From Lachnospiraceae bacterium (GTDB lineage Bacteria; Bacillota; Clostridia; Lachnospirales; Lachnospiraceae): a stretch of DNA of 64,000 bases. The DNA is taken from contig JAILOK010000027.1 in the NCBI GenBank assembly GCA_024690825.1, forward strand, positions 15,377-79,376. Reading direction: 5' to 3'. The translations under genes were made by a program, and so were the position numbers. Below the pieces are notes generated by a model. The model was not told where the DNA came from and did no database searches. It saw only the letters and a program-made list of their open reading frames with translations. Shown piece by piece: positions 4,142 to 63,397 of this stretch (the first letter of the stretch is position 1; each line of letters opens with the position of its first letter).

Positions 4142-6775
4142 TTATGCCTGTATTCCCATCTCCTCCAATGCTGCCTGGGCTGCTGCAAGCCTTGCTATCG
4201 GCACCCTGAAGGGCGAGCATGATACATAGTTGAGACCTACCTTGTGGCAGAAGAATACGGATGACGGATCTCCGCCGTGCTCTCCGCAGATTCCTATACG
4301 CAGGTCAGGATTGCTCTCCCTGCCCTTCTTCGTTGCCATCTCGATAAGCTGTCCCACACCGCTCTGATCGAGCTTTGCAAACGGATCCGACTCGTAGATC
4401 TTGGCCTTGTAGTAAGCCGGCAGGAACTTGCCTGCATCATCTCTTGAAAATCCGAAGGTCATCTGTGTCAGATCGTTGGTTCCGAATGAGAAGAAATCCG
4501 CTTCCTTTGCGATCTCATCTGCAGTAAGCGCTGCTCTGGGGATCTCGATCATGGTACCGATATGATAAACGATATCTGAATTTCTTTCCTTCTTTACATG
4601 CTCGGCTGTCTTGATACAGACTTCCTTCACATATTTAAGTTCCTTTGCATCTCCGACAAGCGGGATCATGATCTCAGGCTCGATAGAGAAGCCTTCCACA
4701 TCCTCAACCTCGATGGCTGCTTCCATGACGGCCCTTGTCTGCATCTCGGCGATCTCGGGATAAGTGACTGCCAGACGGCATCCCCTGTGTCCCATCATGG
4801 GATTGACTTCATGCAGGTTATTGCAGGCTTCCTTTACTTCCTCAACCGAGATGCTCATCATATCAGCCAGTTCCTTGATATCCTTGTCATTGTTTGGAAC
4901 GAATTCATGAAGCGGCGGATCGAGGAACCTGATCGTAACCGGTCTTCCCTTAAGGGCTGTGTAGAGGCCCTTGAAATCTGCCTTCTGATAAGGGATCAGC
5001 TCGTAAAGCGCCTTCTTTCTTTCATCATATGTCTTTGAAAGGATCATGCGGCGAAGCTTCGGTATCCTGTCGGGATTGAAGAACATGTGCTCTGTACGGC
5101 ACAGACCGATGCCCTCGGCGCCGTTCCTGACTGCAGTCTCCGCATCAGCCGGAGTATCGGCATTTGTGTAAACCTTGAGTTTGCGGAGAGCGTCAGCCCA
5201 GCCCATGAGTCTCTTGAAATTACCCGATATCTCAGCTTCGCTGGTTGCGATATCGCCCTTGTAGATCTTTCCCGTGGAACCGTCAAGTGAGATGTAATCA
5301 CCCTCTTTGAAGGTCTCGCCTCCCAAAGTAAAGGTCTTGTTCTCTTCATCCATCACTATATCGCCGCAGCCGGAGATACAGCATGTACCCATGCCTCTTG
5401 CAACAACCGCGGCGTGGCTTGTCATACCGCCTCTGACCGTAAGGACACCCTCTGATGAGTGCATTCCCTCGATATCCTCAGGGCTTGTCTCAAGCCTTAC
5501 AAGGATCGTTCTCTGGCCTGCCTTGTGAGCGGCCACTGCATCAGCAGCAGTGAAATAAACGCGTCCCGATGCAGCTCCGGGAGATGCCGGAAGCGCCGAT
5601 CCGACCACCTTTGCCTTCTTGACGGCTTCGGGATCGAAATTCGGGTGAAGGAGCTGGTCGAGCGACTTGGGCTCTATCCTCATGACAGCTTCCTTTAATG
5701 ATATCTTGCCCTCGTCCACAAGGTCGCATGCGATCTGCAGAGCTGCGGCAGCTGTCCTCTTTCCGTTTCTGGTCTGCAGGAAATAGAGCTTTTCTTCCTC
5801 GATGGTAAATTCCATATCCTGCATATCGCGGTAGTGATTCTCAAGCTTTCTGGCTATTCCCATGAACTGCTTGTAAACCTCGGGCATATCCTCCGCAAGC
5901 TTTGAGATCGGCTGGGGAGTACGGACACCGGCAACGACATCCTCTCCCTGTGCATTGATGAGGTATTCACCGAAAATACCCTGTTCGCCGGTGGCGGGGT
6001 TCCTGGTGAATGCCACGCCCGTACCGGACTTGTCGCCCATATTACCGAAAACCATCGACTGCACATTTACGGCCGTACCCCAGTCGCCCGGGATATCGTT
6101 CATGCGGCGGTAGATGATCGCTCTTTCATTGTCCCATGAACGGAACACCGCGCGCACAGCCTCGATAAGCTGAACCTTGGGATCCTGAGGAAATTCCTCT
6201 CCCATCGCATCCTTGTAAATGGCTTTAAACCTCTTGATGAGTTCCTTTAAGTCATCCGCGGTCATGTCGACATCAAACTTGATGCCCTTCTTTTCCTTTA
6301 TCGCGTCTATTTCCTTCTCAAAAAGGGACTTGCTCACTTCCATGACAACATCAGAGAACATCTGGATGAATCTCCTGTAGGAGTCATAAGCAAATCTCGG
6401 ATTACCGGTCTTTTTTGCAAAGCCCTCCACCGAAATATCATTCAATCCCAGGTTAAGGATGGTATCCATCATACCCGGCATCGAAGCGCGGGCTCCGGAA
6501 CGCACGGACACAAGGAGCGGATTGTCAACATCTCCAAACTTCTTGCCCTGTTTCTCCTCGAGCCATTTGAGAGCCTCGAATATCTGCTCCTGGATCTCCA
6601 TCGGTATCTCACGGTTTCTCTCGTAATACTCCGTGCAGGCCTCGGTGGTGATGGTGAAGCCCTGGGGTATGGGCAGACCGAGGTTTGTCATCTCGGCAAG
6701 ACCGGCCCCTTTGCCGCCGAGCAGATTTCTCATGCCGGCGTTTCCTTCATGGAAGTAATAGACCCATTTCTTCAT
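4142..6775 (-). CDS. ppdK: Pyruvate, phosphate dikinase
   Basis: LLGGKGAGLAEM, PLLVSVRSGA, GGMTSHAAVVARG (phospho-His motif), GIGLCRTEHMF, FSFGTNDLTQ, GICGEHGGDP; 877 aa. Confidence 0.98.
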   Translation of the reverse strand: MKKWVYYFHEGNAGMRNLLGGKGAGLAEMTNLGLPIPQGFTITTEACTEYYERNREIPMEIQEQIFEALKWLEEKQGKKFGDVDNPLLVSVRSGARASMPGMMDTILNLGLNDISVEGFAKKTGNPRFAYDSYRRFIQMFSDVVMEVSKSLFEKEIDAIKEKKGIKFDVDMTADDLKELIKRFKAIYKDAMGEEFPQDPKVQLIEAVRAVFRSWDNERAIIYRRMNDIPGDWGTAVNVQSMVFGNMGDKSGTGVAFTRNPATGEQGIFGEYLINAQGEDVVAGVRTPQPISKLAEDMPEVYKQFMGIARKLENHYRDMQDMEFTIEEEKLYFLQTRNGKRTAAAALQIACDLVDEGKISLKEAVMRIEPKSLDQLLHPNFDPEAVKKAKVVGSALPASPGAASGRVYFTAADAVAAHKAGQRTILVRLETSPEDIEGMHSSEGVLTVRGGMTSHAAVVARGMGTCCISGCGDIVMDEENKTFTLGGETFKEGDYISLDGSTGKIYKGDIATSEAEISGNFKRLMGWADALRKLKVYTNADTPADAETAVRNGAEGIGLCRTEHMFFNPDRIPKLRRMILSKTYDERKKALYELIPYQKADFKGLYTALKGRPVTIRFLDPPLHEFVPNNDKDIKELADMMSISVEEVKEACNNLHEVNPMMGHRGCRLAVTYPEIAEMQTRAVMEAAIEVEDVEGFSIEPEIMIPLVGDAKELKYVKEVCIKTAEHVKKERNSDIVYHIGTMIEIPRAALTADEIAKEADFFSFGTNDLTQMTFGFSRDDAGKFLPAYYKAKIYESDPFAKLDQSGVGQLIEMATKKGRESNPDLRIGICGEHGGDPSSVFFCHKVGLNYVSCSPFRVPIARLAAAQAALEEMGIQA

Positions 6776-11769: not shown

Positions 11770-11938
11770 TAAAGGAAAATACGAAGATATCATAAACACG
11801 GAATATCCGTTCCCATCCGGCCGCAGCCGTATGTCCATGCACGACAGGGCTGCCCAGTTTGCGCCCTTTGCCGCCCTGACAGGCCTCGGGGAAGAACTCG
11901 AGAAGGTAGCGGAGGTGACAGAGGGACGGTCCCGGTGA
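11741..11938 (+). CDS. Short YolD-like accessory protein, possibly C-terminally truncated
   Basis: KYEDII...MSMHDRAAQFAPFAALTG is the N-terminal signature of genes that follow Firmicute UmuC homologues. Overlaps the polymerase end; its last codons and stop come from a REP-like unit. Confidence 0.7.
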   Translation: MNRSADTKHNKGKYEDIINTEYPFPSGRSRMSMHDRAAQFAPFAALTGLGEELEKVAEVTEGRSR

Positions 11939-14109: not shown

Positions 14110-14226
14110 AAGCCTTTCTTCCTCCTTATTCGAACTGATATCTCAATTTTAGACATTCAGTAATTTTAAGTATATGCGTGATTTCGGAAAATACGATACC
14201 ATATTTTTCAATTTTGACAAAATATG

Positions 14227-14330
14227 GTGACAGGGGGACGGTTCTGCTGTCATCTTTTGTGTCAGGGGTGTGTCAGGGGGACGGTTCTTCTGTCATCTTT
14301 TGTGTCAGCAGAACCGTCCCTCTGTCAACT
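14227..14330. repeat. REP-like repeat, locus 2 (three half-sites)
   Basis: GACAGGGGGACGGTTCTG..., TCAGGGGGACGGTTCTT... and inverted CAGAACCGTCCCTCTGTC, abutting the ABC gene stop. Confidence 0.85.
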
Positions 14331-16064
14331 CTATATCGCGCTCAGCTGCATGCGGTAATACTTCTCGTAGAGTCCGCCCCGTTTAATAAGTTCCTTATGC
14401 GTGCCCCGTTCCATGATGCCCTCGCTGTCAAGGACGATGATCTCGTCCGCGCCGAGGATCGTGGAAAGCCTGTGGGCTATGGTGATCGTCGTACGGCCGC
14501 AGGCAAGCCTTTCCAGACTGTCCTGTATGAATCGCTCGCTCTCATTATCAAGGGCGCTTGTTGCCTCATCAAGGATAAGCACCGGCGGATTTTTCAAAAA
14601 CACTCTTGCTATCGCGATACGCTGCTTCTGCCCGCCCGATAATCTTTCGCCTCTCTCACCGACCCCGGTATCAAGTCCTTCCGGCAGATCATTTATCAGA
14701 TCCATGAGATCGGCATCCTCCGCGGCTTTTATTATATCGTCATCAGATGCCCCGGGTCTGCCGTAAGCAATATTTTCGCGTATGGTGCCGTTAAAGAGAT
14801 ATACATCCTGCTGGACTATGCCGATGAAGGAACGAAGCGACTTCTGCGTCACATCTCTTACATCTGTCCCGTCGATCTTTACGGAACCTTCGGACACATC
14901 GTAAAACCTCGGAAGGAGCGAACACAGCGTCGTCTTGCCCCCGCCTGACGGCCCTACAATGGCAACAGACTTTCCCGCATCGATATGCAGATCGACAGCC
15001 TTAAGCACTTTTTCATCGCCTTCATATGAAAAACCCACATTCTCATAATCAATGACACCCTTAACATCCCGAAGTTCTTTCGCGCCCGGTCTGTCCACGA
15101 TCTCGGGCACGGTCTCCATCACCTCGCTGAACCGTTCAAAGCCCGCAAGGCCCTTCTGGAACAGCTCGGTAAACTCCACCAGCACATTTATGGGATTGAT
15201 GAAGATATTGATATAGAGCGCATAGATGGCAAGGTCCTCCACGGAAAGAGAACCCTTTGCTATGAGAAATCCGCCGGCTGCGATCACCGCAACATACATC
15301 ATCCCTTCAAAGAAATTGTTGCCCGTGAAAAACAGAGCCATCTGTCTGTAATTGTCTTTTCTCGAATCAAGAAAAGCCAGATTGCTCTCATCGAATTTTT
15401 CCTTTTCGATCTCTTCTCCGGTAAAGGATTTGACCACGCGGATCCCGGCAAGAGTATCCTGCAGTGTTGAGTTGATCCCTGCGATCTTTTCGCGGTTATC
15501 CGTAAATGTAGCTCTCATCCGCCGGTTCTGGCTCACCGAAAAAACGATCATGCACGCAGCCACAAAAACAAGACAGAGAGTCATGGGAACATTGATCCTC
15601 ATCAGCAGTATGAAGGACCCCGCCAGCTTGATGACGGAAATAAAGATATTCTCAGGCCCGTGGTGCGCAAGCTCCGTGATATCAAAAAGGTCGGAAACGA
15701 GCTTCGACATCATCGCGCCCGTATTATGCGTATCGTAGTAGGAGAAGGAAAACGCCTCATATCTGTCAAACAGGTCCTCGCGCATCTTTGATTCCATCCG
15801 TGCGCCCATCATATGACCCTGATAGGTGACATACCATCTGCAAAGCGACCTGATCACATACAGCGCAATAAGAACAAGCGCAATGATCCCAAGCCTTGAA
15901 AGTATCTCCTGCGAAGATTCAAGAAACAAAGTCGTCCTGAGCACCCTCAGAAACTGCGGGAACATGAGATCGATGAGCGACAGTACAGTCGCGCAGAAAA
16001 GATCAAAAAGGAACACTCCGATATGCGGTTTGTAATAAGGTATAAATTTTCTGATCAGTTTCAT
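14331..16064 (-). CDS. ABC exporter, fused permease and ATPase
   Basis: Six-TM N-half; Walker A GPSGGGKT, LSGGQKQRIAIAR, LILDEATSALD, IAHRLST. Start placed at MKLIRK (16064); the ORF track extends to 16115. Confidence 0.92.
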   Translation of the reverse strand: MKLIRKFIPYYKPHIGVFLFDLFCATVLSLIDLMFPQFLRVLRTTLFLESSQEILSRLGIIALVLIALYVIRSLCRWYVTYQGHMMGARMESKMREDLFDRYEAFSFSYYDTHNTGAMMSKLVSDLFDITELAHHGPENIFISVIKLAGSFILLMRINVPMTLCLVFVAACMIVFSVSQNRRMRATFTDNREKIAGINSTLQDTLAGIRVVKSFTGEEIEKEKFDESNLAFLDSRKDNYRQMALFFTGNNFFEGMMYVAVIAAGGFLIAKGSLSVEDLAIYALYINIFINPINVLVEFTELFQKGLAGFERFSEVMETVPEIVDRPGAKELRDVKGVIDYENVGFSYEGDEKVLKAVDLHIDAGKSVAIVGPSGGGKTTLCSLLPRFYDVSEGSVKIDGTDVRDVTQKSLRSFIGIVQQDVYLFNGTIRENIAYGRPGASDDDIIKAAEDADLMDLINDLPEGLDTGVGERGERLSGGQKQRIAIARVFLKNPPVLILDEATSALDNESERFIQDSLERLACGRTTITIAHRLSTILGADEIIVLDSEGIMERGTHKELIKRGGLYEKYYRMQLSAI

Positions 16065-16150
16065 ATGATCTGCCTGATATAGAGATTTTGGAGATTCCTG
16101 CCGGAGAATGACCATTCAGCCATTTCAGAGGTTAATTGTACGATACCGGC

Positions 16151-18304: not shown

Positions 18305-18403
18305 AAAGATGACAGGGGGACGGTTCTGGTGACACAAAAGGTGACAAAAGAACCGTCCCGGTGACACAAAAGTTGTCACCAGAACCGTCCCCCTGTCATC
18401 TTT
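18305..18403. repeat. REP-like repeat, locus 3
   Basis: Perfect 30-bp IR AAAGATGACAGGGGGACGGTTCTGGTGACA (18305-18334 / 18374-18403) with a third half-site inside; lies between divergent trpE and apt. Confidence 0.9.
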
Positions 18404-25600: not shown

Positions 25601-25706
25601 ACATTCACGCAGTATGATTGTGCATATGCGATGAAACCGAAAGAGGCAATGCGGGCATTGCCGATTGAGGTTGAAGAAACATATGTGCAATCAGACAAGC
25701 GAATGT
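25601..25706 (+). ncRNA. Candidate structured small RNA (unassigned)
   Basis: ACATTC/GAATGT; a 14-bp stem 25615-28/25680-93 with two G-U pairs valid only on the plus strand; AACC/GGTT; apical GGCAATGC-GG-GCATTGCC. Confidence 0.35.
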
Positions 25707-25711
25707 GTCAG

Positions 25712-26809
25712 TTAATTTTTTTGATGTGCAAGTACAGACAGAAATCTGTTGATCAGCAGTATCATCACAGAAACATATATCAGGAAACATACGACGATGA
25801 CGACATAACTGACATAACCGCGGGCTCTGGTGACAAACTTGTTTACAAACATTGCGGCGTACAAAGATGCGATCCAGACAGCGGGGTTATTGTGAACAGC
25901 CATGAAAAGAAGCGAATTCCTGCCCCAGAACCGCGTGACCGGAAACGCCTTACCGCTCTTTGAAAGCGACATCACCATCCTGCACATCAGGATAATAAAA
26001 CCGGATCCCGCCACGGCGCCGATGTAATACAGCAGATAATTGTTAAGAACAAGCGAACGCAGATCCGTCGGCGAATTGAACCTGACCACCGCAATATTGA
26101 CCGCAAAAAAGATTACAGCGGTAAGAAGATGACAGGGGGACGGTTCTGCTGACAACTTTTTGGAAAAAAGATGACAGCAGAACCGTCCCCCTGTCATCTC
26201 AAAAAGATATCCGATCGAAATAAATGAGCAGGCGATGACCGGACGCAGAAGCATCACGATGATCTCGTTAAGACGCACATATACTGCCGGATTTTCCGGA
26301 ATGTATCCGCGGATCTCATTTACCCCCAGAGCCGCCATGGTCATGATGAGAACCGCGATCCACCTTTTCTTTCCGTCAAACTTTTTCATGATGAGAGCAA
26401 AGATCATCTCGGCAATAAACAGTGCAGGGAGAAACCACAGTACATTGATGCCGTAGAGACTTACGGCGTACCACAGCTGCACGAACATATCGGTTATGTT
26501 CATCGAATGACTGATAAAGACTCCGTAGAGGATGATCAGAAAATAGATCACGGTAAAAAGATAATAAGGGACCATGATCGTAGAGAATCTCTTTTTGAAA
26601 AAGTCCTTCATAGGGGGTATCTCGCCCTTCGCCGCAAAGAGCATTCCCGATATGATGAAAAACATCGGCATGTGAAAAGAAAAGATCCATTTACAGAACC
26701 CCTGAATATGGGGAGAAAGCGCAAAGATCGTATCATTTTGAAGGTGCCCGCATAATACGAGCACCATTCCTATACCTTTTGCAAGATCAATATAAGCTAC
26801 ACGTTTCAT
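25712..26809 (-). CDS. Acyltransferase-3 (OafA-like) membrane O-acyltransferase containing an in-frame REP-like element
   Basis: YIDLAKGIGMVLVLCGH, IFSFHMPMFFIISG, VLWFLPALF, WGRNSLLFMAVH. Confidence 0.88.
   Translation of the reverse strand: MKRVAYIDLAKGIGMVLVLCGHLQNDTIFALSPHIQGFCKWIFSFHMPMFFIISGMLFAAKGEIPPMKDFFKKRFSTIMVPYYLFTVIYFLIILYGVFISHSMNITDMFVQLWYAVSLYGINVLWFLPALFIAEMIFALIMKKFDGKKRWIAVLIMTMAALGVNEIRGYIPENPAVYVRLNEIIVMLLRPVIACSFISIGYLFEMTGGRFCCHLFSKKLSAEPSPCHLLTAVIFFAVNIAVVRFNSPTDLRSLVLNNYLLYYIGAVAGSGFIILMCRMVMSLSKSGKAFPVTRFWGRNSLLFMAVHNNPAVWIASLYAAMFVNKFVTRARGYVSYVVIVVCFLIYVSVMILLINRFLSVLAHQKN
26127..26199. repeat. REP-like repeat, locus 4, inside a coding sequence
   Basis: Perfect 25-bp IR AGATGACAGGGGGACGGTTCTGCTG / CAGCAGAACCGTCCCCCTGTCATCT; translated as MTGGRFCCHLFSKKLSAEPSPCHL. 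Confidence 0.9.
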
Positions 26810-26814
26810 AAATA

Positions 26815-29800
26815 CTACTCAGCCTGAGCCACATCAAACTTTCTTTTTATCTTACCGGTAAACCGTGTTCCGGTTCCGACGATCGTAACTGTTCCCTTCT
26901 TCGGACCTACCTGCTTGAAGGTTCCCCACACCACATAGTAGTCGCCTGCTTCATTGCCGGATACATCCTTCGGCTTCAGGACCTCCTTCGTCTCTTTGTC
27001 AGCCCTTGTCCATACCACCTTTATCATGCTGTCATCATACTGCCCGTCAGGTCTGTAGGGCACGGGCTGTTCAATGCCGTCTTCCTCATTGACAAACACC
27101 TCGACCGGCGTTTTGTCCTTATTATACTCCTGTACGCCTATGGTATATGTCAGATCATATCTGCCGTAATATTTTCCGGTGCCTTCAACCCTGATCCTGT
27201 ACCTGCCGGCCCTGTTGTTTGAGAGCGCGGAGCCGTCGATCCTGTAGCCCTCTTCCGCAAGCGTCGAAAGATCATCTATCGTTGTTTCATTCTGATAGAT
27301 ATAAAGCCTGATGCCTTCCGTGCCTTTATTTTCGATCCGGTTTGAAAGCTTAAGCGTCAGATCGGTGTATTCATCCCCGCTTGAGAAATTGAAACTCTTT
27401 TTCTTCAGCGTGATGTCATCACACTTAAGCTTCGTGCCGCCGTAGGTCACCTTTACATATGCAGGCTCGAACACATAGTATTTCATCTTCAGACTTTCAT
27501 CCGAAAACTGCACTTTCAGATAATAAATACCAGAGTTCAGCGCTTCCGGGGTAAGCTCGCTCTTCGCATATACTTTCGCGGTGCATTCGTCCTTCCCGTC
27601 TACGAGATCAACGCTGATCGAACCACCGCTGCCGTCCTTATCCACATCCTGATAGGTGTATTTCTTCTCCGAAGTCTTTGCATAGAACTTATCCGGATCA
27701 AGGAATGCGGCGATCCCGGCTTCCTCTTCCGACATGGGATAAACGACCTTTTTATAGGTTCCTCCGACAGTCATCTTTTTCGAGGTCTTCGGAATTCCAT
27801 AGAAGAATATGCCTTCGCTTTCTCCTTCTCCCTCGTATTTGAAAGGATCCTGGGTCCTGCCGCTGATATTGGGATTGCTGCCGTTTGATGTCAGCACGAC
27901 CGTATACCTGCTGAAGGAATCCGTGGTCTTAAACTTCTTTGCCGTTACATCCTTTCCGTCCTCGTCATAGATCGATATATCATAGGCGGATGAAGGTATG
28001 GTCTTTCCGGCATTCACGCCGCTTAAATAGCTTGCCTTAACCTTGGGCTTTAAGACCTTTCCGTTATATTTGATATACTGCGTTGTCACGGCAACATCCG
28101 CCGCGTAGGCAAGGTCTGCGGGAAGTATCACAAAGTATACCTTGATCTTCATTTCGGAATAAATACCCTTGCCGGTAACGATGACGGTCGGTCTGTTTTC
28201 ACTGTCCATGTTGCCTGCGTTCTTATTATTTTTGTAGGTAAGGGTATAATCGGTACCGAAGGAAAGCCTGTTGCCGCCGTCCTCAACGCGGATGTCTAGG
28301 GTGGGACTGTAGCCGCTCTTGGGGAGTCCCTTTGAGTAATACCTGGTGTCGTCCTTTGCCACATATTTGTTGCCGTTATAGACAACGGGCATTAAAGCCT
28401 TCACTGTAAGGCTGGCATTGTTATCGCTTGCGCTGACTTCCTCTGTAAATATCTCAAACAGCGTATATTTTGCTCCGTCTTTTTTGATCTTTTCCACAAA
28501 AGTTTGTCTGTCAAAGGTAAATTTTGTTCCCTTTTCATCCCTTGTGGGCTCGCTGTAGATACCGATATCGGCAGCGTTCATCATTTCTTCTTTATAGCAC
28601 TGTTCAAGCTGGTCATACACGACCTGTTTGACACACCAGACCGCGCCCTTTGTTGACTGCTTGTTCGAGAAGCTGTATATGGTAAGGGGAGTCGTATCCT
28701 CCGCCCTTCTTATCTTCGTCGGAGCGATCTCCTTTTCCATTGAAGGATCCCTGAATTCAAGGATGAGCGAGGGTTCCACATTGTAGGTGACCCAGGGCTT
28801 CTCCATGAGTTCATAGTTGCTTTCCTTATCATCATTGGGATCTGACTTAAGTTTTCCCAGATCCTTAAGCTGCGCTTTGTAGCCGGAATATTTTCTTGCA
28901 TTGGATATGCCGGTAAGGTCAATGACGGAGGATGAGGAATCAAACCAGTCCTGGATCGGAACATTTTCTCCCGACACAACCGTCACTTTGCTCATCTTTC
29001 CGCTCTCATCTGCCCTGTATACGCTTATAAGCCCGTAATATCTTTCCGTCAGTTCATCTCCGACAAGTGAACTTACGGCCTTGGATGCGGTAACATATAC
29101 AGGCATGCGCAGAATGGCAAAATCCGTCGAAGCGTTCTTTTCAAGGCAGTCAACGCTTACCGAAATCTCAGTTCCCGCGCTCATCTTTGAGCAGTCAAAC
29201 GAATCTGACGGAGTGTTTGCGCCGTTCCAGTAGAAAAGTGCGCCGGAAGACTTTGTCAGTTCCTTCTTTGTGCTTCCGTGTATGAAATACAATGTGAAAT
29301 AATCATAAACATTGTCTATCTTATCCGAATAAAAGACATCCTTTTTCTGTACCAAAGACAGGCTGTCCTTTTCCTTTATCTCCTCCACGGTATACCTAAG
29401 GAGCTGGGTTATTGATACGACTGAAGCATTCAGGATCCTGTAACGCCCTGTTTTATCCACTCCGTTCACGCTGATGTTAAATCCTGTATCCGTCTTTGCA
29501 GCTATATAATAAGTACCTGCATCGTTACAGGACAGATTGACATCAACGGGCTTCTCATTCTGTCCCGCGTCATTAGTGCTCACATAGGCAGTTCCGGTCA
29601 CGACGGCATCGGTGATCTCGTTTCCGTTCTTATCAAAAAGCGCGGTCGTCAATCCGGCCTGCTTTAAGCTCTGTCCCTTCAATACCATTCCAAGGGCAAG
29701 CGCAGGGCGTATATAGGCATCCTCCTGCTCATGGATCTCATAATATGTGCCGTTTTTTTCCGCATAATAACCGTCTTTAATGCAGTTCATATCCGGTTTT

Positions 29801-31350
29801 GTATTAAAAGATCCTCCGGTAATGTTGACATTATCCTTTATGACACCGGTATCATAGGCTGCGCTTACCGCCATTGCCTGTCCGTTTTTATTATTGGGAA
29901 CCGAGGTGAACTTTCCTCCGCTGATGTCGACCTTCATATGGGTCCTCTGCAGCGCAGGATCCGTACTTCTGTGATTCACATATAACCCAAACAGGCCGGA
30001 AAAGGTTCCTCCCTTTATGGTCAGGCTGCTGTGCTCCGTTTCATATGATGTGTGCTGGGTATAGGGAGAGTAACCGATGCCGCATCCGACAGTCGTGGAA
30101 CCGTTTGCGATATAGCTCAGATTCAGATTGTCTATAAAGGTGTTGTCCGATATGCATGACACCACTGCGTTCTCGATCACTGTGATACCGTTGCTGACCT
30201 CGATACCCGTAGATCCGGTAAAGTTACCGCCGTTTATCGTAAGATTTCCGAAACCCGCATGATAGATCGCAGTTCCTTCATTATCCAAGGCCTTGAAGGT
30301 TCCGCCGTTTATGGTAAATTTTGTTCCGAAAGACCAGGGCTCGCCGTAGTTCTGGAAACATGTACTCCTTGTAGTTATATTTACGGTGTCATCTTCGACT
30401 ATTACCTCGGCTCCGTTTCCTATGGCATACATTCCCATGTAACCGTCGGTTATCTTAAGTCCCGATCTGATTACAGCCTTTGAATTGTAAGGCTCCTTGA
30501 CATCAAATTTTTTTCCGGAAGGGACAGCTGCGACATTTCCGACGACCATTATGGCCTTGCCGCACGCCTCAAGGGCAGATTTATGCTCATCGCAGTCGAT
30601 ATAGGCCGCTATCGAGATCTTTTCCGCGGTAAGCTCAGCCTTGTCCCAGACTGCTACGACAGAATCCGAGGCTTCCGTATTGTTTACGATCGAACCGGGG
30701 GTTTCCGATGAATCGGTGAGGGTAAGCTTCGTCCCCTCTCCGTGAGCAGAGATCAGAAACTCGTTTTCCATATTTTTGGATCCGCCCATATTGATGGCCG
30801 TATTAAGGGCTGTAATTGCCTCTCCCGTACCGCCTATGCCATGACCGTTAAGATCTATCATGATATTTTTCCCGCCGTCTATGTCCACAGCCGTGCCGGT
30901 AAGGGTTATATCTCCCGTCAGAGTGATCTTTGCAGCCGCAGATGCGGGAGCTGCTGCAACAGCGCTCATAAGGGCAGCTGCCGAAGATACCGTAACCTCG
31001 GCTCCTGCTGCTTCTTCCGGTGCAGTTTCTCCCTCTTCTTCAACAGGAAGCGTCTCGTCTTCCGAAACACTCTCGCCGGGTTCATTATCCGATGCAGAGG
31101 ATTCGGGCTGTTTTTCTTCCGGGATCACGGGAGCAGTCTCGTCTCCGGAAGGAGTTGTCTCATCTTCCGGTCTTGTTTCATCCGGCGCCTCAGTGCTCGG
31201 CTCGGATACGGCAGGCATCTCTATACCCGCTCCCGCTCCCGGCATCACCGGCGTATCTTTTACCTCATCCGCATAAACGCTGCAGGTCATTGACATGACC
31301 ATTGCAATGATGAGCAGTATCGACAGCTGTTTCCTGAACCTTTTCCTCAT
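26815..31350 (-). CDS. 1511-aa secreted/surface protein: signal peptide, acidic P/E-rich linker, beta-helix-like region, Ig-like repeats
   Basis: MRKRFRKQLSILLIIAMVMSMTCSVYADE signal; repeated xITGGxF strands; repeats such as DYTLTYKNNKNAG...VTGKGIY, VEGTGKYYG and TIVGTGTRFTG. Confidence 0.8.
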   Translation of the reverse strand: MRKRFRKQLSILLIIAMVMSMTCSVYADEVKDTPVMPGAGAGIEMPAVSEPSTEAPDETRPEDETTPSGDETAPVIPEEKQPESSASDNEPGESVSEDETLPVEEEGETAPEEAAGAEVTVSSAAALMSAVAAAPASAAAKITLTGDITLTGTAVDIDGGKNIMIDLNGHGIGGTGEAITALNTAINMGGSKNMENEFLISAHGEGTKLTLTDSSETPGSIVNNTEASDSVVAVWDKAELTAEKISIAAYIDCDEHKSALEACGKAIMVVGNVAAVPSGKKFDVKEPYNSKAVIRSGLKITDGYMGMYAIGNGAEVIVEDDTVNITTRSTCFQNYGEPWSFGTKFTINGGTFKALDNEGTAIYHAGFGNLTINGGNFTGSTGIEVSNGITVIENAVVSCISDNTFIDNLNLSYIANGSTTVGCGIGYSPYTQHTSYETEHSSLTIKGGTFSGLFGLYVNHRSTDPALQRTHMKVDISGGKFTSVPNNKNGQAMAVSAAYDTGVIKDNVNITGGSFNTKPDMNCIKDGYYAEKNGTYYEIHEQEDAYIRPALALGMVLKGQSLKQAGLTTALFDKNGNEITDAVVTGTAYVSTNDAGQNEKPVDVNLSCNDAGTYYIAAKTDTGFNISVNGVDKTGRYRILNASVVSITQLLRYTVEEIKEKDSLSLVQKKDVFYSDKIDNVYDYFTLYFIHGSTKKELTKSSGALFYWNGANTPSDSFDCSKMSAGTEISVSVDCLEKNASTDFAILRMPVYVTASKAVSSLVGDELTERYYGLISVYRADESGKMSKVTVVSGENVPIQDWFDSSSSVIDLTGISNARKYSGYKAQLKDLGKLKSDPNDDKESNYELMEKPWVTYNVEPSLILEFRDPSMEKEIAPTKIRRAEDTTPLTIYSFSNKQSTKGAVWCVKQVVYDQLEQCYKEEMMNAADIGIYSEPTRDEKGTKFTFDRQTFVEKIKKDGAKYTLFEIFTEEVSASDNNASLTVKALMPVVYNGNKYVAKDDTRYYSKGLPKSGYSPTLDIRVEDGGNRLSFGTDYTLTYKNNKNAGNMDSENRPTVIVTGKGIYSEMKIKVYFVILPADLAYAADVAVTTQYIKYNGKVLKPKVKASYLSGVNAGKTIPSSAYDISIYDEDGKDVTAKKFKTTDSFSRYTVVLTSNGSNPNISGRTQDPFKYEGEGESEGIFFYGIPKTSKKMTVGGTYKKVVYPMSEEEAGIAAFLDPDKFYAKTSEKKYTYQDVDKDGSGGSISVDLVDGKDECTAKVYAKSELTPEALNSGIYYLKVQFSDESLKMKYYVFEPAYVKVTYGGTKLKCDDITLKKKSFNFSSGDEYTDLTLKLSNRIENKGTEGIRLYIYQNETTIDDLSTLAEEGYRIDGSALSNNRAGRYRIRVEGTGKYYGRYDLTYTIGVQEYNKDKTPVEVFVNEEDGIEQPVPYRPDGQYDDSMIKVVWTRADKETKEVLKPKDVSGNEAGDYYVVWGTFKQVGPKKGTVTIVGTGTRFTGKIKRKFDVAQAE

Positions 31351-38212: not shown

Positions 38213-38950
38213 TTATTGTATTTGGTTTACATAATTTTCATCAAAGGCTGCCAGTTCTTCGACGCTGTCGATCTCGGTGATCTGGTCATTCTTTACCGGA
38301 TGTATGACGAGTTTAAGCCTGTCAAGATTTTCATTGACCACATCATCCCAGTAGACATCTTCATGTCCGGGCTTTGAATACCTGTCGTCAATGGCATCCG
38401 CAAGGATCACGGAGTCCTCTTCGGTAAAATATGAAATGCCGCACATATTATAGCAGTTATCTCCGACTTTTCCCACCCGGGTGATGAATCCTTTTTCATC
38501 AAGGTCAAATACCCAGTCATCGGAGTGACCCTCTATGAACTTTCCGAAGTAACAGGAATCATTCAGATCCGCAAGAAAGATCGACGGATCTGACACAAAA
38601 AGATCGGCCTCACAGATAAATACACGCTTTCCGCGCAGGATATCCGTGACCGCCTTTATTGACGAGATATTGTTCACTATCTCGTAGTCTTTATTTTTTA
38701 CGAGGGATAAACCCGGATATTTGGATGCAAGATAGGAAAACTGCTCTCCCAGATAACCCGTGACAACATAGATCTCATCTATCCCACGGCCTCTCAGTCC
38801 GTTTATCACGGTCTCTGCCATGGGGATGCCCTTTACCCTGATCAGGGGTTTCGGGGTATTTTCGGTCAGGGGACGCATCCTTGTCCCCATTCCCGCAGCC
38901 ATCAGGACCGCAATTTCCTTATTTTTTATCTGTTCTTCCGCAACGATCAT
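38213..38950 (-). CDS. LicC/PntC-like phosphocholine/phosphonate cytidylyltransferase
   Basis: LMAAGMGTRMRPLTENTPKPL, VVTGYL, NNISS, EADL, ITEIDSVEEL; ATGA overlap with pepM. Confidence 0.88.
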   Translation of the reverse strand: MIVAEEQIKNKEIAVLMAAGMGTRMRPLTENTPKPLIRVKGIPMAETVINGLRGRGIDEIYVVTGYLGEQFSYLASKYPGLSLVKNKDYEIVNNISSIKAVTDILRGKRVFICEADLFVSDPSIFLADLNDSCYFGKFIEGHSDDWVFDLDEKGFITRVGKVGDNCYNMCGISYFTEEDSVILADAIDDRYSKPGHEDVYWDDVVNENLDRLKLVIHPVKNDQITEIDSVEELAAFDENYVNQIQ

Positions 38951-40242
38951 AACTCGTCTATCAGTGTTATTATTTCCTTGAAGGGCATCAGATGCGAATC
39001 CGCTTCCATTGCCCTGTGATTTGTAAGTATCTCTACGGCAGTCTGCTTCATGGCCGGGAATGCCGCCCTCATCAGCTGGTTTGCGTATATAACGATATTT
39101 ACGCCGTGACGGCTCAGTTCTTCTTCCGTTACGCTGTTGAAGGAAGTGGGCACCACAACGATCGGGGTTGTCTTGTCCTTTTCCCTGAACTTATCGCAGA
39201 ATTCAAAGATCTCCGCCGGATCCTTTTTGCGGCTGTGTATCATTATCCCGTCTGCGCCTGCCTCCTTAAAGGCAAAGGCACGCGTCAGGGCATCTTCCAT
39301 GCCGCGTTCCAATATCAGGGATTCGATGCGCGCGATGATCATGAAATCATCCGTAAGCTGCGCCCTCTTTCCTGCGGCTATCTTTGCCGAGAAGTTTTCT
39401 ATGGAATCCTGGGTCTGGACGACCTCGGTACCGAAAAGAGAATTCTTTTTCAGCCCCGTCTTGTCCTCTATGATGACTGCCGAAACACCCATTCTTTCCA
39501 GGGTACGGACATTATATACAAAATGCTCCGTAAGTCCGCCTGTATCACCGTCAAGGATTATGGGCTTTGTGGTCACCTCGAGGATATCGCTGATGGTACG
39601 AAGACGCGAGGTCATATCCACAAGTTCGATGTCAGGCTTTCCCCTGTCGGTGCTGTCGCACAGGGATGAAACCCACATGCCGTCGAACTGGTCGAGCTTC
39701 CCGTCCTTTTCCACTATGGTCTTTTCGGTGATAAGGCCGGTAAGTCCGCTGTGCGCCTCCATGATCTTTACTATGGGACAGATCTCGATGAGCTGTCTTA
39801 AACGCTTCCTTCTGTATTCGGGCATGGCCAGCTTTTCCTTTAACCGCCGGTCGGCCTTGGATACATTTTCATTGTAGGTATAGCCGATCTCTACAAGCTC
39901 TCCGCCGTATTTCTTCAGAGCCTCCAGACAATTCTCCCTCAGCGCCTTCTCCGGCCCGTCCTTCCAGTTATCGCCGTGGATGACTATGTCGGGCTTCAGC
40001 GTACTTATTATGCCGTCATAAGTCATGTCATCCTGAACTACCACCTCGTCGACGCCTTCAAGCGATTTATAGAGCGCTATCCTTTCATCGATCGATATCG
40101 TGGGAAATCTGTTATAGCGTATGAGCGCACTGTCGGACAGCGCCCCGATGGTGACGCTTCCAAGCTTTGCTGCTTCCTTTATTATATTCAGATGACCTTC
40201 ATGAATGATGTCAGTCGTAAAACAGGTGTATACTTTTTTCAA
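38947..40242 (-). CDS. pepM: Phosphoenolpyruvate mutase fused to an N-terminal cytidylyltransferase-like domain
   Basis: TDIIHEGH (HxGH) N-domain; diagnostic EDKTGLKKNS (EDKxxxxxNS); ARIES, DGIMIHS, YANQLMRA. Confidence 0.96.
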   Translation of the reverse strand: MKKVYTCFTTDIIHEGHLNIIKEAAKLGSVTIGALSDSALIRYNRFPTISIDERIALYKSLEGVDEVVVQDDMTYDGIISTLKPDIVIHGDNWKDGPEKALRENCLEALKKYGGELVEIGYTYNENVSKADRRLKEKLAMPEYRRKRLRQLIEICPIVKIMEAHSGLTGLITEKTIVEKDGKLDQFDGMWVSSLCDSTDRGKPDIELVDMTSRLRTISDILEVTTKPIILDGDTGGLTEHFVYNVRTLERMGVSAVIIEDKTGLKKNSLFGTEVVQTQDSIENFSAKIAAGKRAQLTDDFMIIARIESLILERGMEDALTRAFAFKEAGADGIMIHSRKKDPAEIFEFCDKFREKDKTTPIVVVPTSFNSVTEEELSRHGVNIVIYANQLMRAAFPAMKQTAVEILTNHRAMEADSHLMPFKEIITLIDEL

Positions 40243-40267
40243 AACAAAATCTCCTATGGGTGTAAGA

Positions 40268-40330
40268 GTTGTCAGGGGGACGGTTCTGTTGTCAACTTTT
40301 GTGACAGAGGGACGGTTCTGTTGTCATCTC
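40268..40330. repeat. REP-like repeat, locus 5 (two direct half-sites)
   Basis: GTCAGGGGGACGGTTCTGTTGTCAACTTTTGTGACAGAGGGACGGTTCTGTTGTCATC between the AEP transaminase and pepM. Confidence 0.85.
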
Positions 40331-40338
40331 TTACAACT

Positions 40339-41466
40339 TTAATTATATTTCAGCGGTACACTGACGCCCGCATCTTTGAGCGCTTCCTTGAAAACCTTCC
40401 AGAAATCACGGATGTCGCCTTCATCTATTGCTCCAAGAGCGCAGAGCCTGAAGGTTCCCTGTCCCGCTATCTTTCCGGGATAGATGGTAAATCCCCTTTC
40501 ATAGCAGAAGTCATGGACCTTCTCAAAATCCCAGTTCGGATCATCCGGATAGATGAGGGCAGCAACAAGTCCCGACTGGACATCGCGGCTTAAAGCCTCC
40601 TTAAAGCCAAGTTCATCAATGCCCTCCCTTATGGCATTCATGACACGGGTATGTCTCTCCCACTTTGCCTTTTCACCCTCCTCATAATACTCGATCAAAG
40701 CCTGCTTCGCGGCATAGATCGTCTGTACCGGAGGAGTGAAGTGCATCTCGCCGGTCTTTTCAAAATATTCATACTGCATATACAGATTGCAATAATAAGA
40801 GCGTTTAGGGAAATCCTTTGACTTTTCTATGATATCGCGCCTTCCTATGATGTATGAAAGGCCCGTCATGCCCATGATACCCTTCTGCGCCGAAGCCATG
40901 CAGAAATCAATGTTCTCATCATATACATTTATAGGGATCATCGCATAGGCGCTGGTGGTGTCAGTTATAAGAAATGCGCCGTATTTATGTGCCAAGTCGC
41001 CTATCTCCTTAACCGGATTTAAAAGTCCTGTCCCGGTCTCGTGATAGGTGACATATACATATCCTATATCCTTATTTTCTTTCAGTGTTTCTTCTATTTT
41101 CTGAAGATCCGGCTTTTCATCGAGCGGCTGTTTCAATTCAATATGCGGCAGATCATAGTATCTGCACACATCGCAGGCTCTTTCGGAATAAGCTCCGTTG
41201 TTTATGATAAGAGCCTTTTTATCCCTGTCGAGCAGCGAATTCAAGGCAATATCTATGCATATCGTCCCCGAACCGCAGAACAGCACAGCCGTGTATTCCT
41301 TCGTATCCGCATGAACGATGCGTACCAGATCATCTCGCATGGGTGCCATGATACCTGCAAATTCCTTTTCCCTCGGGCAGATATCCGGAACCACCTGGGC
41401 CATCTTGACGGTATCCGTCGTAGTCGACGGACCGGGATTCAGCAGTATATTCCGTTTAATGTCCAT
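40339..41466 (-). CDS. aepZ: 2-aminoethylphosphonate transaminase (AepZ/PhnW family, PLP-dependent)
   Basis: ILLNPGP, YHETGTGLLN, TDTTSAY, SAQKG, FTPPVQ, TIYPGK. Start MDIKR at 41466 after GGAGG. Confidence 0.92.
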   Translation of the reverse strand: MDIKRNILLNPGPSTTTDTVKMAQVVPDICPREKEFAGIMAPMRDDLVRIVHADTKEYTAVLFCGSGTICIDIALNSLLDRDKKALIINNGAYSERACDVCRYYDLPHIELKQPLDEKPDLQKIEETLKENKDIGYVYVTYHETGTGLLNPVKEIGDLAHKYGAFLITDTTSAYAMIPINVYDENIDFCMASAQKGIMGMTGLSYIIGRRDIIEKSKDFPKRSYYCNLYMQYEYFEKTGEMHFTPPVQTIYAAKQALIEYYEEGEKAKWERHTRVMNAIREGIDELGFKEALSRDVQSGLVAALIYPDDPNWDFEKVHDFCYERGFTIYPGKIAGQGTFRLCALGAIDEGDIRDFWKVFKEALKDAGVSVPLKYN

Positions 41467-41522
41467 TTTTTCATATCCTCCTGCACTGCCCATAAGTTTA
41501 CATCAGATACACATGTCATGTC

Positions 41523-41597
41523 AAAAGATGACAGAGGGACGGTTCTGGTGTCAACTTTTGTGTCACCAGAACCGTCCCCCTGTCACCCCTGTCATCT
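41523..41597. repeat. REP-like repeat, locus 6
   Basis: GATGACAGAGGGACGGTTCTGGTG...CACCAGAACCGTCCCCCTGTCA hairpin directly after the htpG stop. Confidence 0.88.
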
Positions 41598-57335: not shown

Positions 57336-57535
57336 AACGCGGCATAAGCATCTGCTTTTAAGTGACACTTATACCGCGTTCTTTGATTTACTAAACATGA
57401 TGTCCACGAATTGCTCCGCCGCTTCGCAGCTTTCGCAATTCTTAAAACACTCACAATCCGTGCTGTCGCACTACTTGTTCGTGTTTTACGGTTCTCAAGT
57501 TCCAAATCCTCTTTGCGCCAGCGCAATCGGATTTG
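57336..57535 (-). other. Four consecutive hairpins between the SBP and ATPase genes
   Basis: CAAATCC/GGATTTG (57503-35), TAAAACAC/GTGTTTTA (57443-88), GAATTGC/GCAATTC (57408-41), and a 13-bp stem at 57336-80 followed by a T run on the minus strand. Confidence 0.65.
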
Positions 57536-57554
57536 TCACTCTCGCACCTGGCTA

Positions 57555-63307: not shown

Positions 63308-63332
63308 ACGCCATCCATTATACCACACAAAA

Positions 63333-63397
63333 TGTGACAGGGGGACGGTTCCGGTGACAACTTTTGTGACAGGGGGACGGTTCTACTGTCATCTTTT
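63333..63397. repeat. REP-like repeat, locus 7 (two direct half-sites)
   Basis: GTGACAGGGGGACGGTTCCGGTGACAACTTTTGTGACAGGGGGACGGTTCTACTGTCATC. Confidence 0.85.

Follow-up and report, generated by a model that had tools for sequence, protein, structure and literature searches.

REP and REPIN repeats, together with RAYT (TnpA-REP) proteins, reportedly form 'REPtrons', the accounts being those of Nunvar in 2010, Bertels and Rainey in 2011 and Ton-Hoang in 2012. REPs of the GTAG and CGTC superfamilies carry a tetranucleotide at one end of the stem-loop, and the CGTC families have stems of 8–9 bp that start with A-T pairs, and loops of 4–5 nt (PMC3733652). Di Nocera et al. 2013 described intragenic REP dimers encoding 20–30 amino acids in several non-rickettsial species, as well as differing REPs near the same site in recB of two Xanthomonas species; the intragenic dimers were proposed to be neutral and to lie in flexible loops (PMC3733652). 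The original prediction for the DNA analysed here, which took in-frame palindromes to be rare outside Rickettsia, is in this respect overstated. For Clostridia, surveys of RAYTs say only that Group 1 is also found there, with a low abundance of flanking 16-mers (PMC5581495).

We analysed a stretch of 64 kb from a rumen Lachnospiraceae bacterium (the window), in which a repeat of this kind lies inside a gene for a membrane acyltransferase. The repeat family shares with REP/REPIN–RAYT systems its short palindromic units, present in many dispersed and mostly intergenic copies, its inverted doublets that form long hairpins, its genome-specific stem variants, and a single Y1 (HUH) transposase gene between inverted units. 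Also shared are the occasional in-frame genic copies of 20–30 amino acids, and the occurrence of different REPs near the same site in orthologous genes (compare recB of Xanthomonas).

The palindrome in the acyltransferase gene

The palindrome spans 73 nt (26127–26199; AGATGACAGGGGGACGGTTCTGCTG, a 23-nt spacer and CAGCAGAACCGTCCCCCTGTCATCT) and is a REP doublet of REPIN-like form, which takes up codons E204–L228 of the coding sequence of an AT3-family membrane acyltransferase (25712–26809, minus strand; 365 amino acids, 10 predicted TM helices). Its arms are perfect over 25 nt and 94% complementary over 35 nt, with a 3-nt centre. Its RNA form has a folding energy of −60.3 kcal/mol (z = −13.1), which none of 200 shuffles matched. 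No Rfam family reached gathering score for the palindrome; the E-value mode brought up nothing but generic models of long hairpins (miRNA precursors), all of them below cutoffs. The original prediction of a 73-bp doublet with perfect 25-bp arms, in frame between two TM helices, is borne out by the fold, the arms and the AF2 model (see below), and the peptide quoted in it matches codons 204–228 exactly.

Translation runs across the palindrome without a stop (…GYLFE-MTGGRFCCHLFSKKLSAEPSPCHL-LTAV…). Alone, this stop-free reading is weak evidence: on the coding strand, only one of the three frames is interrupted by a stop within the palindrome. In mRNA order, unit 1 (26163–26199, minus strand) consists of the stem GAGAUGACAG/CUGUCAUCUU and the loop GGGGACGGUUCUG, followed by a U-run, and encodes EMTGGRFCCHLF. 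The folding energy of this unit alone is −18.2 kcal/mol, and with the U6 behind it the hairpin resembles a terminator as far as sequence goes, but the loop is large (13 nt). Unit 2 (26127–26162, plus strand) is inverted relative to the gene and encodes …SAEPSPCHL. The repeat-encoded peptide holds three Cys and two His in 17 residues; judged by their codons, these residues simply result from in-frame translation of TGT-CAT in the repeat stem. Predicted peptides that cross the repeat junctions include FCCHLFSK and LSAEPSPCHLLTAV….

The repeat family and its transposase

An arm of the in-gene palindrome has 9 matches in the window at up to 3 mismatches, against 0.00 expected, and its 16-nt core has 16, against 0.25 expected. 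Copies of the repeat were counted by a DNA-based census. A unit of the family has a stem of 5–10 bp that encloses a near-invariant loop, GGGGACGGTTCT. Across 246 units the consensus is aGACAgGGGGACGGTTCTgyTGTC, in which conservation of the loop is 90% or more, and T-rich tails are a general trait of these units. The family is dispersed and multi-copy, with seven loci in the 64 kb and more than 109 loci across genomes (~17 expected by chance). Six of the seven window loci are intergenic, between genes with Pfam support. They comprise a cluster of three units (+ + −) that adjoins the stop codon of an ABC-transporter gene (14225–14330), another cluster of three (+ − −) between divergent genes (18307–18401), two pairs (+ +) at 40267–40322 and 63332–63390, a doublet (+ −) at 41526–41588, and a degenerate single core between convergent genes (11917–11932, plus strand). 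The +/− pairing typical of REPINs is found at 14225–14330, 18307–18401 and 41526–41588 as well as in the gene. No transposase stands beside the other copies in the window, the neighbours being ordinary housekeeping genes, and a tblastn search confined to the window and the orthologous loci found no RAYT.

The REPtron arrangement, with units flanking a RAYT gene, was found at the family level, in other Clostridia. The ORF at 5095–5844 of locus L115 is bracketed by inverted units and matches Pfam Y1_Tnp (E = 2e-15) and NCBIfam REP_Tyr_transpos (80.6 bits, with a cutoff of 80). A (+) unit 62–88 nt upstream and a (−) unit 11–110 nt downstream were present at 15 of 18 loci of RAYT homologues. Six full-length RAYTs turned up among 109 loci picked solely by a repeat 18-mer, and a RAYT was also found in a rumen Lachnospiraceae MAG (L085). 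The hosts of the family are Clostridia (Lachnospiraceae, Oscillospiraceae and others) and some Coriobacteriia. Judged by its copies and flanking units, the repeat is a RAYT-associated REP family, widespread in gut and rumen Clostridia. The selfish, REP-type nature proposed for it earlier agrees with its multiple, mostly intergenic copies, its inverted doublets and a cognate RAYT with the same flanking units in other Clostridia.

The family differs from described REPs in that no GTAG or CGTC tag stands at the unit end; the conserved part is the 12-nt loop, and CGTC occurs only inside that loop, on the other strand. We rejected membership of the GTAG/CGTC superfamilies, as the consensus has no conserved terminal tetranucleotide and a loop of 12–13 nt. 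A MITE was likewise rejected: the 10-nt direct repeats at the locus are REP stems and not duplicated target DNA, and the associated enzyme is a Y1/HUH RAYT and not a DDE transposase. In the searchable literature the core sequence returned only unrelated primer matches, and no description of this repeat was found.

With Rickettsia palindromic elements (RPEs) the repeat has in common that a palindromic selfish element lies in frame in a functional gene and contributes a surface or loop segment that the fold can accommodate. It differs from them in its much shorter unit (~35 nt; 73 nt for the doublet), in its free-living gut anaerobe hosts, in having a cognate transposase, and in that in-frame residence is exceptional (one of the seven window loci and ~1–2% of clusters elsewhere), whereas RPE members are often in frame in genes. 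Indeed, only about one or two of 85 REP clusters elsewhere lie within credible genes, and the sole convincing further in-frame copy is that of L059, in an aldolase-like gene. Most other open frames spanning the repeat were discarded as high-GC or N-terminal artefacts, and the copy in L096 (ThiE) is probably a chance 18-mer within a conserved motif.

The host enzyme and its variable loop

The acyltransferase matches Pfam Acyl_transf_3 (PF01757, E = 5e-25) over residues 5–350, and its AF2 model has a pLDDT of 91.1 and a pTM of 0.91. The best solved fold for the model in Foldseek was human HGSNAT (8vkj, 8vlv and 8vli; probability 1.0), with TM-scores of only 0.46–0.50 (TMq) and E ~0.02. All 37 family-invariant columns of a 76-sequence alignment are kept in the window protein, including 11 of 11 located 3′ of the repeat. 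With AT3 O-acyltransferases such as Oac, OafA/OafB, NolL and WecH, the protein thus shares the profile match across the whole domain and the invariant residues, the conserved TM1 His among its conserved features; the predicted model adds the ~10 TM helices of multi-pass AT3/HGSNAT proteins and an HGSNAT-like fold. Unlike SGNH-bearing AT3 proteins, it is AT3-only. It differs from known AT3 enzymes in its repeat-derived TM6–TM7 loop, and in its conserved partner, a secreted protein of 1,511 amino acids. The gene for this partner (26815–31350, minus strand), whose product has a signal-peptide-like N-terminus and no Pfam family, lies upstream, with 5 nt between its stop codon and the start of the acyltransferase gene; the pair is syntenic across all orthologues. 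A terminator-like hairpin (25645–25662, minus strand) follows ~50 nt 3′ of the acyltransferase stop codon. A relative of the enzyme is annotated at source as 'fucose 4-O-acetylase-like', and JGI metagenome contigs held no closer relative above 39% identity. One ambiguously labelled RNA run contained only fragments.

The dN/dS of the acyltransferase is 0.13–0.15 in the N-terminal part and 0.095–0.113 in the C-terminal part, downstream of the repeat, across all pairs (dS > 1). By these estimates both halves of the gene are intact and under purifying selection. The downstream part is in frame, as had been proposed, and the gene is not a decayed one, with dN/dS of ~0.1 on both sides of the repeat and every invariant residue in place. 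In the AF2 model, helices 175–206 and 225–245 flank the repeat-encoded residues, which form the sole low-confidence loop of an otherwise confident model, between TM6 and TM7; confidence falls to 58 at residues 211–220. K/R-rich loops are read from the sequence at residues 61–76, 143–150, 207–224 and 283–296, and by the positive-inside rule only, the TM6–TM7 repeat loop is probably cytoplasmic.

Units of the same family occupy the TM6–TM7 loop in five of seven syntenic orthologues, and their number, orientation, boundaries and reading frame all vary. The window carries + −, L002 carries + − with a 42-nt spacer and perfect 29-nt arms, L003 + + + − and L004 + + −, L005 retains a collapsed palindrome, and L001 and L006 have no unit. 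The loop measures 57–180 nt. The codon phase of the reverse unit is 2 in the window and in L005 and 0 in L002–L004; its peptide is EPSPCH in the window and RTVPLS or RTVPCF in L002–L004, and the loops of L003 and L004 carry GRFSVS arrays. As the units differ in number, orientation, boundaries and frame, it is the DNA motif that persists, and not the peptide. The in-gene units match the stem variant of their own genome, and the number of direct units varies between lineages (two or three, with a 33-nt period). The orthologue phylogeny is star-like (dN 0.16–0.22), with repeat-free members interspersed. Apparent large insertions in L011, L016, L188, L196 and L197 proved to be tandem paralogous acyltransferase genes.

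The alignment of orthologues upholds the shared site of the repeat and does not uphold a simple 73-bp insertion. Since 73 nt is not divisible by three, whatever was inserted cannot have coincided with the palindrome as drawn; compared with orthologues that lack the repeat, the protein is just 12–15 amino acids longer, and the actual indel is 42 nt. Exactly these 42 nt (14 codons; 26126–26167) are missing from a 98.7%-identical strain, giving an in-frame single-unit allele (…EMTGGRFCCHL|LTAV…) with a loop no longer than in repeat-free orthologues. In the X5 contig (298 nt, 4 mismatches), position 26125 is directly followed by 26168, and 10 nt at this junction fit either flank. The polymorphic segment is bounded by direct repeats of AAGATGACAG (left copy 26126–26135, right copy 26168–26177, both plus strand). 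The in-frame 42-nt indel between 10-nt direct repeats and the variation of unit number between lineages are traits shared with intragenic tandem-repeat or slippage polymorphisms of surface-related genes. The units here differ from those in being copies of a genome-wide REP family and not a locally born coding repeat, and there is no sign of on/off switching at the loop, because all alleles stay in frame.

Variation is also seen among close strains. A 96.5%-identical strain has a different stem variant at the site. Between L004 and L008 (96.6% identical), 19 of the 39 differences fall within the 129-nt loop (14.7% against 2.0% elsewhere), a divergence about seven times that of the rest of the gene, and 11 of 43 loop residues are changed, compared with 7 of 337 elsewhere. 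We see no sign in these sequences of selection on the repeat peptide, because the Cys and His come from the stem, the loop is probably cytoplasmic, the frames differ and close strains are hypervariable; on these grounds, the 'Cys-rich loop' to which the original prediction attached meaning is a by-product of TGTCAT. The arms, however, are perfect (25/25 in the window, 29/29 in L002) while synonymous sites are saturated between lineages. This is unlike a passively decaying old insertion and calls for renewal, or for selection acting on the DNA or RNA. Covariation of the arms is uninformative as proof of a selected structure, since any doublet that derives from a single master unit will be self-complementary in any case.

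Origin and possible roles of the in-gene repeat

We consider it probable that the locus is a tolerated, fast-turning-over REP nest in a permissive, probably cytoplasmic TM6–TM7 loop of an AT3 acyltransferase. A REP doublet of the RAYT-associated family is lodged in the DNA for this short loop, a site that would tolerate added or altered residues, so that the enzyme would stay functional and the repeat would simply be translated. The loop may be a repeat nest that predates the divergence of related species, or a recurrent target. It could be remodelled by gain and loss of units through slippage between the short direct repeats made by the stems, by tandem duplication of units, and by swap-in of each genome's own stem variant. 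We infer both the neutrality of the peptide and slippage and turnover as the mechanism.

It is possible, though doubtful, that the repeats of the orthologues arose from separate, recent insertions into a hot spot, either a preferred RAYT/REP target or the only permissive site, and not from one remodelled ancestral insertion. Such a history would fit the scattered boundaries (7–34 nt from the GY codons on the left, 21–39 nt to the AVN codons on the right), the differing frames, the match of each copy to its own genome's stem variant, the perfection of arms despite dS > 1.5, the change of stem variant in the 96.5%-identical strain and the star-like phylogeny with its interspersed repeat-free members. 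However, all occupied orthologues have a common layout, with the forward unit or units first and the reverse unit last; L003, L004 and L008 have the non-repeat spacer EKGVKRAG in common, so their array was vertically inherited; and L005 is explicable by collapse of an L002-like palindrome across a repeated GGAC. In addition, intragenic copies are rare (one of seven loci here, 1–2 of 85 clusters elsewhere), and at least three independent hits in one 60-nt loop would require a strong, so far hypothetical, target preference. The persistence of the DNA motif, and not the peptide, across lineages with saturated dS could also mean that the repeat is kept as a nucleic-acid element, namely an attenuator or terminator, an mRNA-stabilising 3′ hairpin or an RNase III target. 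The hairpin and U-run of unit 1 would then end some transcripts, or, for the stabiliser and RNase III forms, the 25–35 bp duplex would act, setting the ratio of the 1,511-aa protein to full-length acyltransferase. The stability of unit 1 (−18.2 kcal/mol, then U6 in the window or UUUUAUUU in L002) and of the doublet hairpins (−60 and −78 kcal/mol) agrees with this, as does the 5-nt gap between the genes, which leaves no intergenic space for a REP, given that REPs generally sit downstream of ORFs and are thought to be RNA elements (PMC3733652). We nevertheless regard it as unlikely: two syntenic orthologues lack any unit and one has a mere collapsed remnant, the natural single-unit allele has neither the long duplex nor the U-run, architectures vary, with the direct arrays of L003 and L004 forming poor hairpins, the loop is hypervariable among close strains, and T-rich tails are common to the family's units generally. 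Also improbable is an actively renewed, long-lived REP nest in which hairpin and U-run serve as an attenuator within the gene and make the surface-protein/acyltransferase operon tunable. A resident RAYT–REP system or gene conversion would then keep replacing units, perfect hairpins would be kept through species-level divergence with the protein frame preserved, and doublet and single-unit alleles would be natural expression variants.

Very little speaks for co-option of the Cys/His-rich loop (CCH…PCH) for metal binding, redox sensing or partner binding by the enzyme. Its density of Cys and His and the frame kept through the repeat in five lineages would suit such a role, but the peptide is unconserved (EPSPCH, RTVPLS/RTVPCF or GRFSVS arrays), more than a quarter of the loop residues (11 of 43) differ between the 96.6%-identical strains against 7 of 337 elsewhere, a natural allele does without 14 of the residues, the loop is of low model confidence, and its Cys and His arise automatically from TGTCAT. 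We think it just as far-fetched that misassembly created the doublet, or that the gene has recently become a pseudogene and only looks intact. The exact protein is found on one contig only, in public runs the contigs are broken at the repeat, and the sole contig that spans the site has the single-unit form. Yet the flanking sequence is collinear with that of the orthologues, and the reading frame is preserved; L004 and L008, from separately deposited assemblies (96.6% identity), agree on a gap-free in-gene array; L002 and L007 agree on the doublet, but are 100% identical and may share source data; the invariant residues are all kept, with dN/dS of ~0.1; and typical reads, or large assembly k-mers, exceed the 25–35 nt of the arms.

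Taken as a tolerated REP nest, the locus is a clear and natural, though not unprecedented, case of a REP doublet within what appears to be a functional gene for a membrane enzyme, and the site that tolerates it is mapped to a single loop. The allelic and orthologous series shows inserts growing, shrinking and shifting frame without breaking the gene. It also defines a RAYT-linked REP family, whose units place a stem around GGGGACGGTTCT; the family is abundant in Clostridia of the rumen and gut, and we found no prior description of it. The general understanding of REPs or of AT3 enzymes is unchanged. Recognising the family would clear many spurious small ORFs and 'GGRF/EPSPC/RTVPLS' peptides from annotations, and would account for contig breaks in the assemblies of these genomes.

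A palindrome read in frame in a membrane acyltransferase gene

The palindrome at 26127-26199 of the window consists of AGATGACAGGGGGACGGTTCTGCTG, 23 nt and CAGCAGAACCGTCCCCCTGTCATCT; its 25-nt arms are perfect, and extended arms of 35 nt around a 3-nt centre retain 94% complementarity. The mRNA strand folds at -60.3 kcal/mol (z = -13.1), and none of 200 shuffles folded as well. As noted originally, the repeat is read in frame inside an acyltransferase ORF (25712-26809, minus strand; 365 aa; Pfam Acyl_transf_3, E = 5e-25 over residues 5-350), where it forms codons E204-L228 in the reading ...GYLFE MTGGRFCCHLFSKKLSAEPSPCHL LTAV.... The open reading is by itself unremarkable, since two of the three frames on the acyltransferase strand are stop-free across the palindrome. 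Furthermore, the inserted block is something other than the delimited palindrome, because 73 nt do not divide into whole codons.

In an AlphaFold2 model of the protein (76 homologues; pLDDT 91.1, pTM 0.91), helices span residues 175-206 and 225-245, and the sole marked dip in confidence falls at residues 211-220 (58). By these limits the repeat encodes the last turn of transmembrane helix 6 (TM6), the first turn of TM7 and the loop that joins them. The closest solved fold is that of the AT3-type human HGSNAT (probability 1.0, TMq 0.46-0.50). Counting helices from the K/R-rich N-terminus, the positively charged loops are 61-76, 143-150, 207-224 and 283-296, which makes a cytoplasmic position of the repeat loop probable under the positive-inside rule.

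The gene does not appear to be otherwise decayed, an outcome that would have spoken against the original prediction. Of the 37 columns that are invariant in the family alignment, 11 of them downstream of the repeat, the protein retains every one, and Nei-Gojobori dN/dS against four orthologues was 0.13-0.15 over residues 1-200 and 0.095-0.113 over residues 232-360, ratios that are approximate because dS (1.2-2.3) is saturated. Judged from these comparisons, the gene is translated through the repeat site under purifying selection. The neighbouring gene, conserved beside the acyltransferase in all orthologues (26815-31350, minus strand), stops 5 nt short of the acyltransferase start. Its 1,511-aa product has an N-terminus resembling a signal peptide, belongs to no Pfam family and could be the substrate or partner of the enzyme.

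A REP family linked to RAYT genes

The repeat arm has nine matches in the window at up to 3 mismatches (0.00 expected), and its 16-nt core has 16 (0.25 expected). They belong to seven loci: a degenerate single core at 11917, clusters of stem-loop units at 14225-14330 (+ + -) and 18307-18401 (+ - -), pairs at 40267-40322 and 63332-63390 (both + +), and inverted doublets (+ -) at 41526-41588 and in the acyltransferase gene, the latter being the only one of the seven not intergenic between Pfam-supported genes. The first cluster adjoins the stop codon (14331-14333) of an ABC-transporter gene (14331-16115, minus strand), which fits a 3'-end hairpin or terminator role of intergenic copies. The copies at 40267-40322 and 41526-41588 bracket two adjacent genes (38947-41493, minus strand), one for a PEP-mutase with a fused cytidylyltransferase-like domain and one for a class-V aminotransferase, which resemble a pair for phosphonate biosynthesis of the 2-aminoethylphosphonate type. 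The window also holds a full-length Rfam Clostridiales-1 RNA (RF01699), an sRNA motif, at 57398-57557 on the minus strand (109 bits, gathering score 48, E = 8e-24).

The exact core 18-mer was found in more than 109 GTDB genome stretches, many with +/- pairs, against about 17 chance matches that we calculate for 596 Gb. Most hosts belong to the Lachnospiraceae, Oscillospiraceae and other Clostridia, and some to the Coriobacteriia. Copies, often as +/- pairs, in Coriobacteriia, Eggerthellaceae and Denitrobacterium MAGs of the Actinomycetota (loci L024, L058, L061, L103, L106 and L117) suggest that the REP-RAYT system has spread horizontally between phyla of the gut. The consensus of 246 units is aGACAgGGGGACGGTTCTgyTGTC, with a genome-variable stem of 5-10 bp and a loop, GGGGACGGTTCT, at least 90% conserved at each position; the folding energy of one unit alone is -18 to -20 kcal/mol. 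No Rfam model covers the element and the core was not found in the searchable literature; the family appears to be undescribed. On RAYTs in this host class, published surveys note only that Group 1 also occurs in Clostridia, with flanking 16-mers of low abundance (PMC5581495).

Among ORFs adjoining units in the 18-mer loci, one from an Oscillospiraceae MAG (L115, 5095-5844) encodes a Y1 transposase (Pfam Y1_Tnp, E = 2e-15; NCBIfam REP_Tyr_transpos, 80.6 bits, cutoff 80), with one (+) unit upstream and two (-) units downstream. At 15 of 18 loci with full-length homologues of this REP-associated tyrosine transposase (RAYT), from diverse Clostridia, a (+) unit precedes the start by 62-88 nt and a (-) unit follows the stop at a distance of 11-110 nt; the flanking units have one common loop and genome-specific stems. 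A RAYT gene bracketed by inverted units is the REPtron layout. The 109 loci chosen by the repeat alone contain six full-length RAYTs, one from a rumen Lachnospiraceae MAG; none was found in the window, which covers 64 kb of the source genome, or in the orthologous loci. The view of the palindrome as a selfish repeat is thus borne out by a multi-copy REP family that brackets RAYT genes in other Clostridia. In another Oscillospiraceae MAG (SIG570; L168, 1013-1447), nine same-orientation units lie directly upstream of a RAYT and four more downstream, an array far larger than any window cluster. Several separate tblastn matches to the helix-turn-helix-like C-terminal part of RAYT within one 8-kb locus (L158, 1059-5595) may represent pieces of RAYT or a family of related small genes.

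Variation of the loop among orthologues and alleles

The closest relatives of the acyltransferase (62-69% protein identity) all come from ruminant gut Lachnospiraceae and share the order ~1,500-aa protein, acyltransferase, Rho, hybrid kinase. Units of the family occupy the TM6-TM7 loop at five of seven loci (the window and the syntenic L001-L006). The loop is 102 nt in the window (+ -), 159 nt in L002 (+ - with a 42-nt spacer and perfect 29-nt arms, -78 kcal/mol), 180 nt in L003 (+ + + -, 33-nt period), 129 nt in L004 (+ + -) and 69 nt in L005, where a short collapsed palindrome is explicable by deletion across repeated GGAC in an L002-like doublet; L001 (66 nt) and L006 (57 nt) have no units. 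Between loci the repeat boundaries shift by as much as about 27 nt. All forward units keep one codon phase (GGRF or GRFSV), but the phase of the reverse unit varies, being 2 for the window and L005 (EPSPCH, GPSLCL) and 0 for L002-L004 (RTVPLS, RTVPCF). In-gene units carry their own genome's stem variant; for example, in L003 and a further locus, L009, ...GGTTCTCTGT... occurs in the gene as well as in the spacer that directly follows it. These differing boundaries, phases and stems indicate that the lineages have in common a DNA motif, not a peptide, and this motif persists despite saturated synonymous sites. More distant homologues with an apparent large insertion were rejected as tandem paralogous pairs (L010, 3654-5841; L189, 405-2586; L196/L197, 1501-3022), which mimic an insertion-bearing gene in tblastn span summaries.

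The loop has also changed recently. A 298-nt contig from a goat gut metagenome, with 4 mismatches, joins 26125 straight to 26168 and so lacks the 42 nt between two copies of AAGATGACAG; as 42 nt is 14 codons, this allele stays in frame (...EMTGGRFCCHL|LTAV...). It has one unit and a loop of 20 aa, compared with 19-22 aa in repeat-free orthologues, so the doublet's net gain is only 12-15 aa. Either one unit took the place of original loop sequence, or the loops taken as 'native' are really units that have decayed. In a further strain, with 96.5% identity over 25850-26109, the sequence runs on into a unit with a different stem. L004 and L008, which belong to separately deposited assemblies, are 96.6% identical without gaps, and 19 of their 39 differences lie inside the 129-nt loop (14.7% divergence, versus 2.0% elsewhere and 4.4% at third codon positions); the proteins differ at 11 of 43 loop residues versus 7 of 337 elsewhere. 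The loop is hypervariable.

Persistence of the repeat and its precedents

The best-supported explanation is that a REP/REPIN nest occupies a loop which is permissive and probably cytoplasmic. The repeat would be translated as a passenger and reshaped by slippage between the direct repeats to which REP stems give rise, by tandem duplication of units and by a swap to the genome's current stem variant. An assembly error behind the doublet is unlikely, even though the exact allele is on only one contig and public contigs break at the repeat. It is possible that RAYT-REP renewal or gene conversion kept the hairpins perfect over long times, and recurrent insertion at a hot spot is possible too. Selection on a nucleic-acid function is a further possibility, as unit 1 with a U-run is terminator-like in the window and L002; however, two orthologues are repeat-free, the single-unit allele has neither the long duplex nor the U-run, and unit architectures vary widely among lineages.

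The original interpretation stands only in part. It saw a selfish repeat generating new Cys-rich loop sequence, but the Cys and His are the stem's TGT-CAT read in frame, and nothing suggests that the peptide matters beyond being tolerated.

In-frame palindromic repeats are classic for Rickettsia RPEs. Their supposed rarity elsewhere is overstated, as intragenic GTAG and CGTC REPs are listed in Opitutus terrae, Thauera, Xanthomonas, Stenotrophomonas and others. Dimers or groups encoding 20-30 aa make up more than half of these copies, which were suggested to be neutral in flexible loops; in two Xanthomonas species, recB carries REPs that differ in kind but lie at nearly one position (Di Nocera et al. 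2013, PMC3733652). The acyltransferase case is the same phenomenon in a different host group, rumen Lachnospiraceae. Its family lacks the terminal tags of those REPs and has CGTC only inside the loop, on the other strand. Within the family, in-frame residence is rare: besides the window, the only convincing case among 85 clusters is L059, from the Oscillospiraceae MAG Emb289P3bin50. There a plausible doublet (QGDGSPV...TEPSPCL) lies at about aa 290-314 of a 395-codon, aldolase-like frame (5222-6406, plus strand) with a class II aldolase domain as its N-terminal part. The allelic and orthologous series makes the acyltransferase repeat an unusually informative example.
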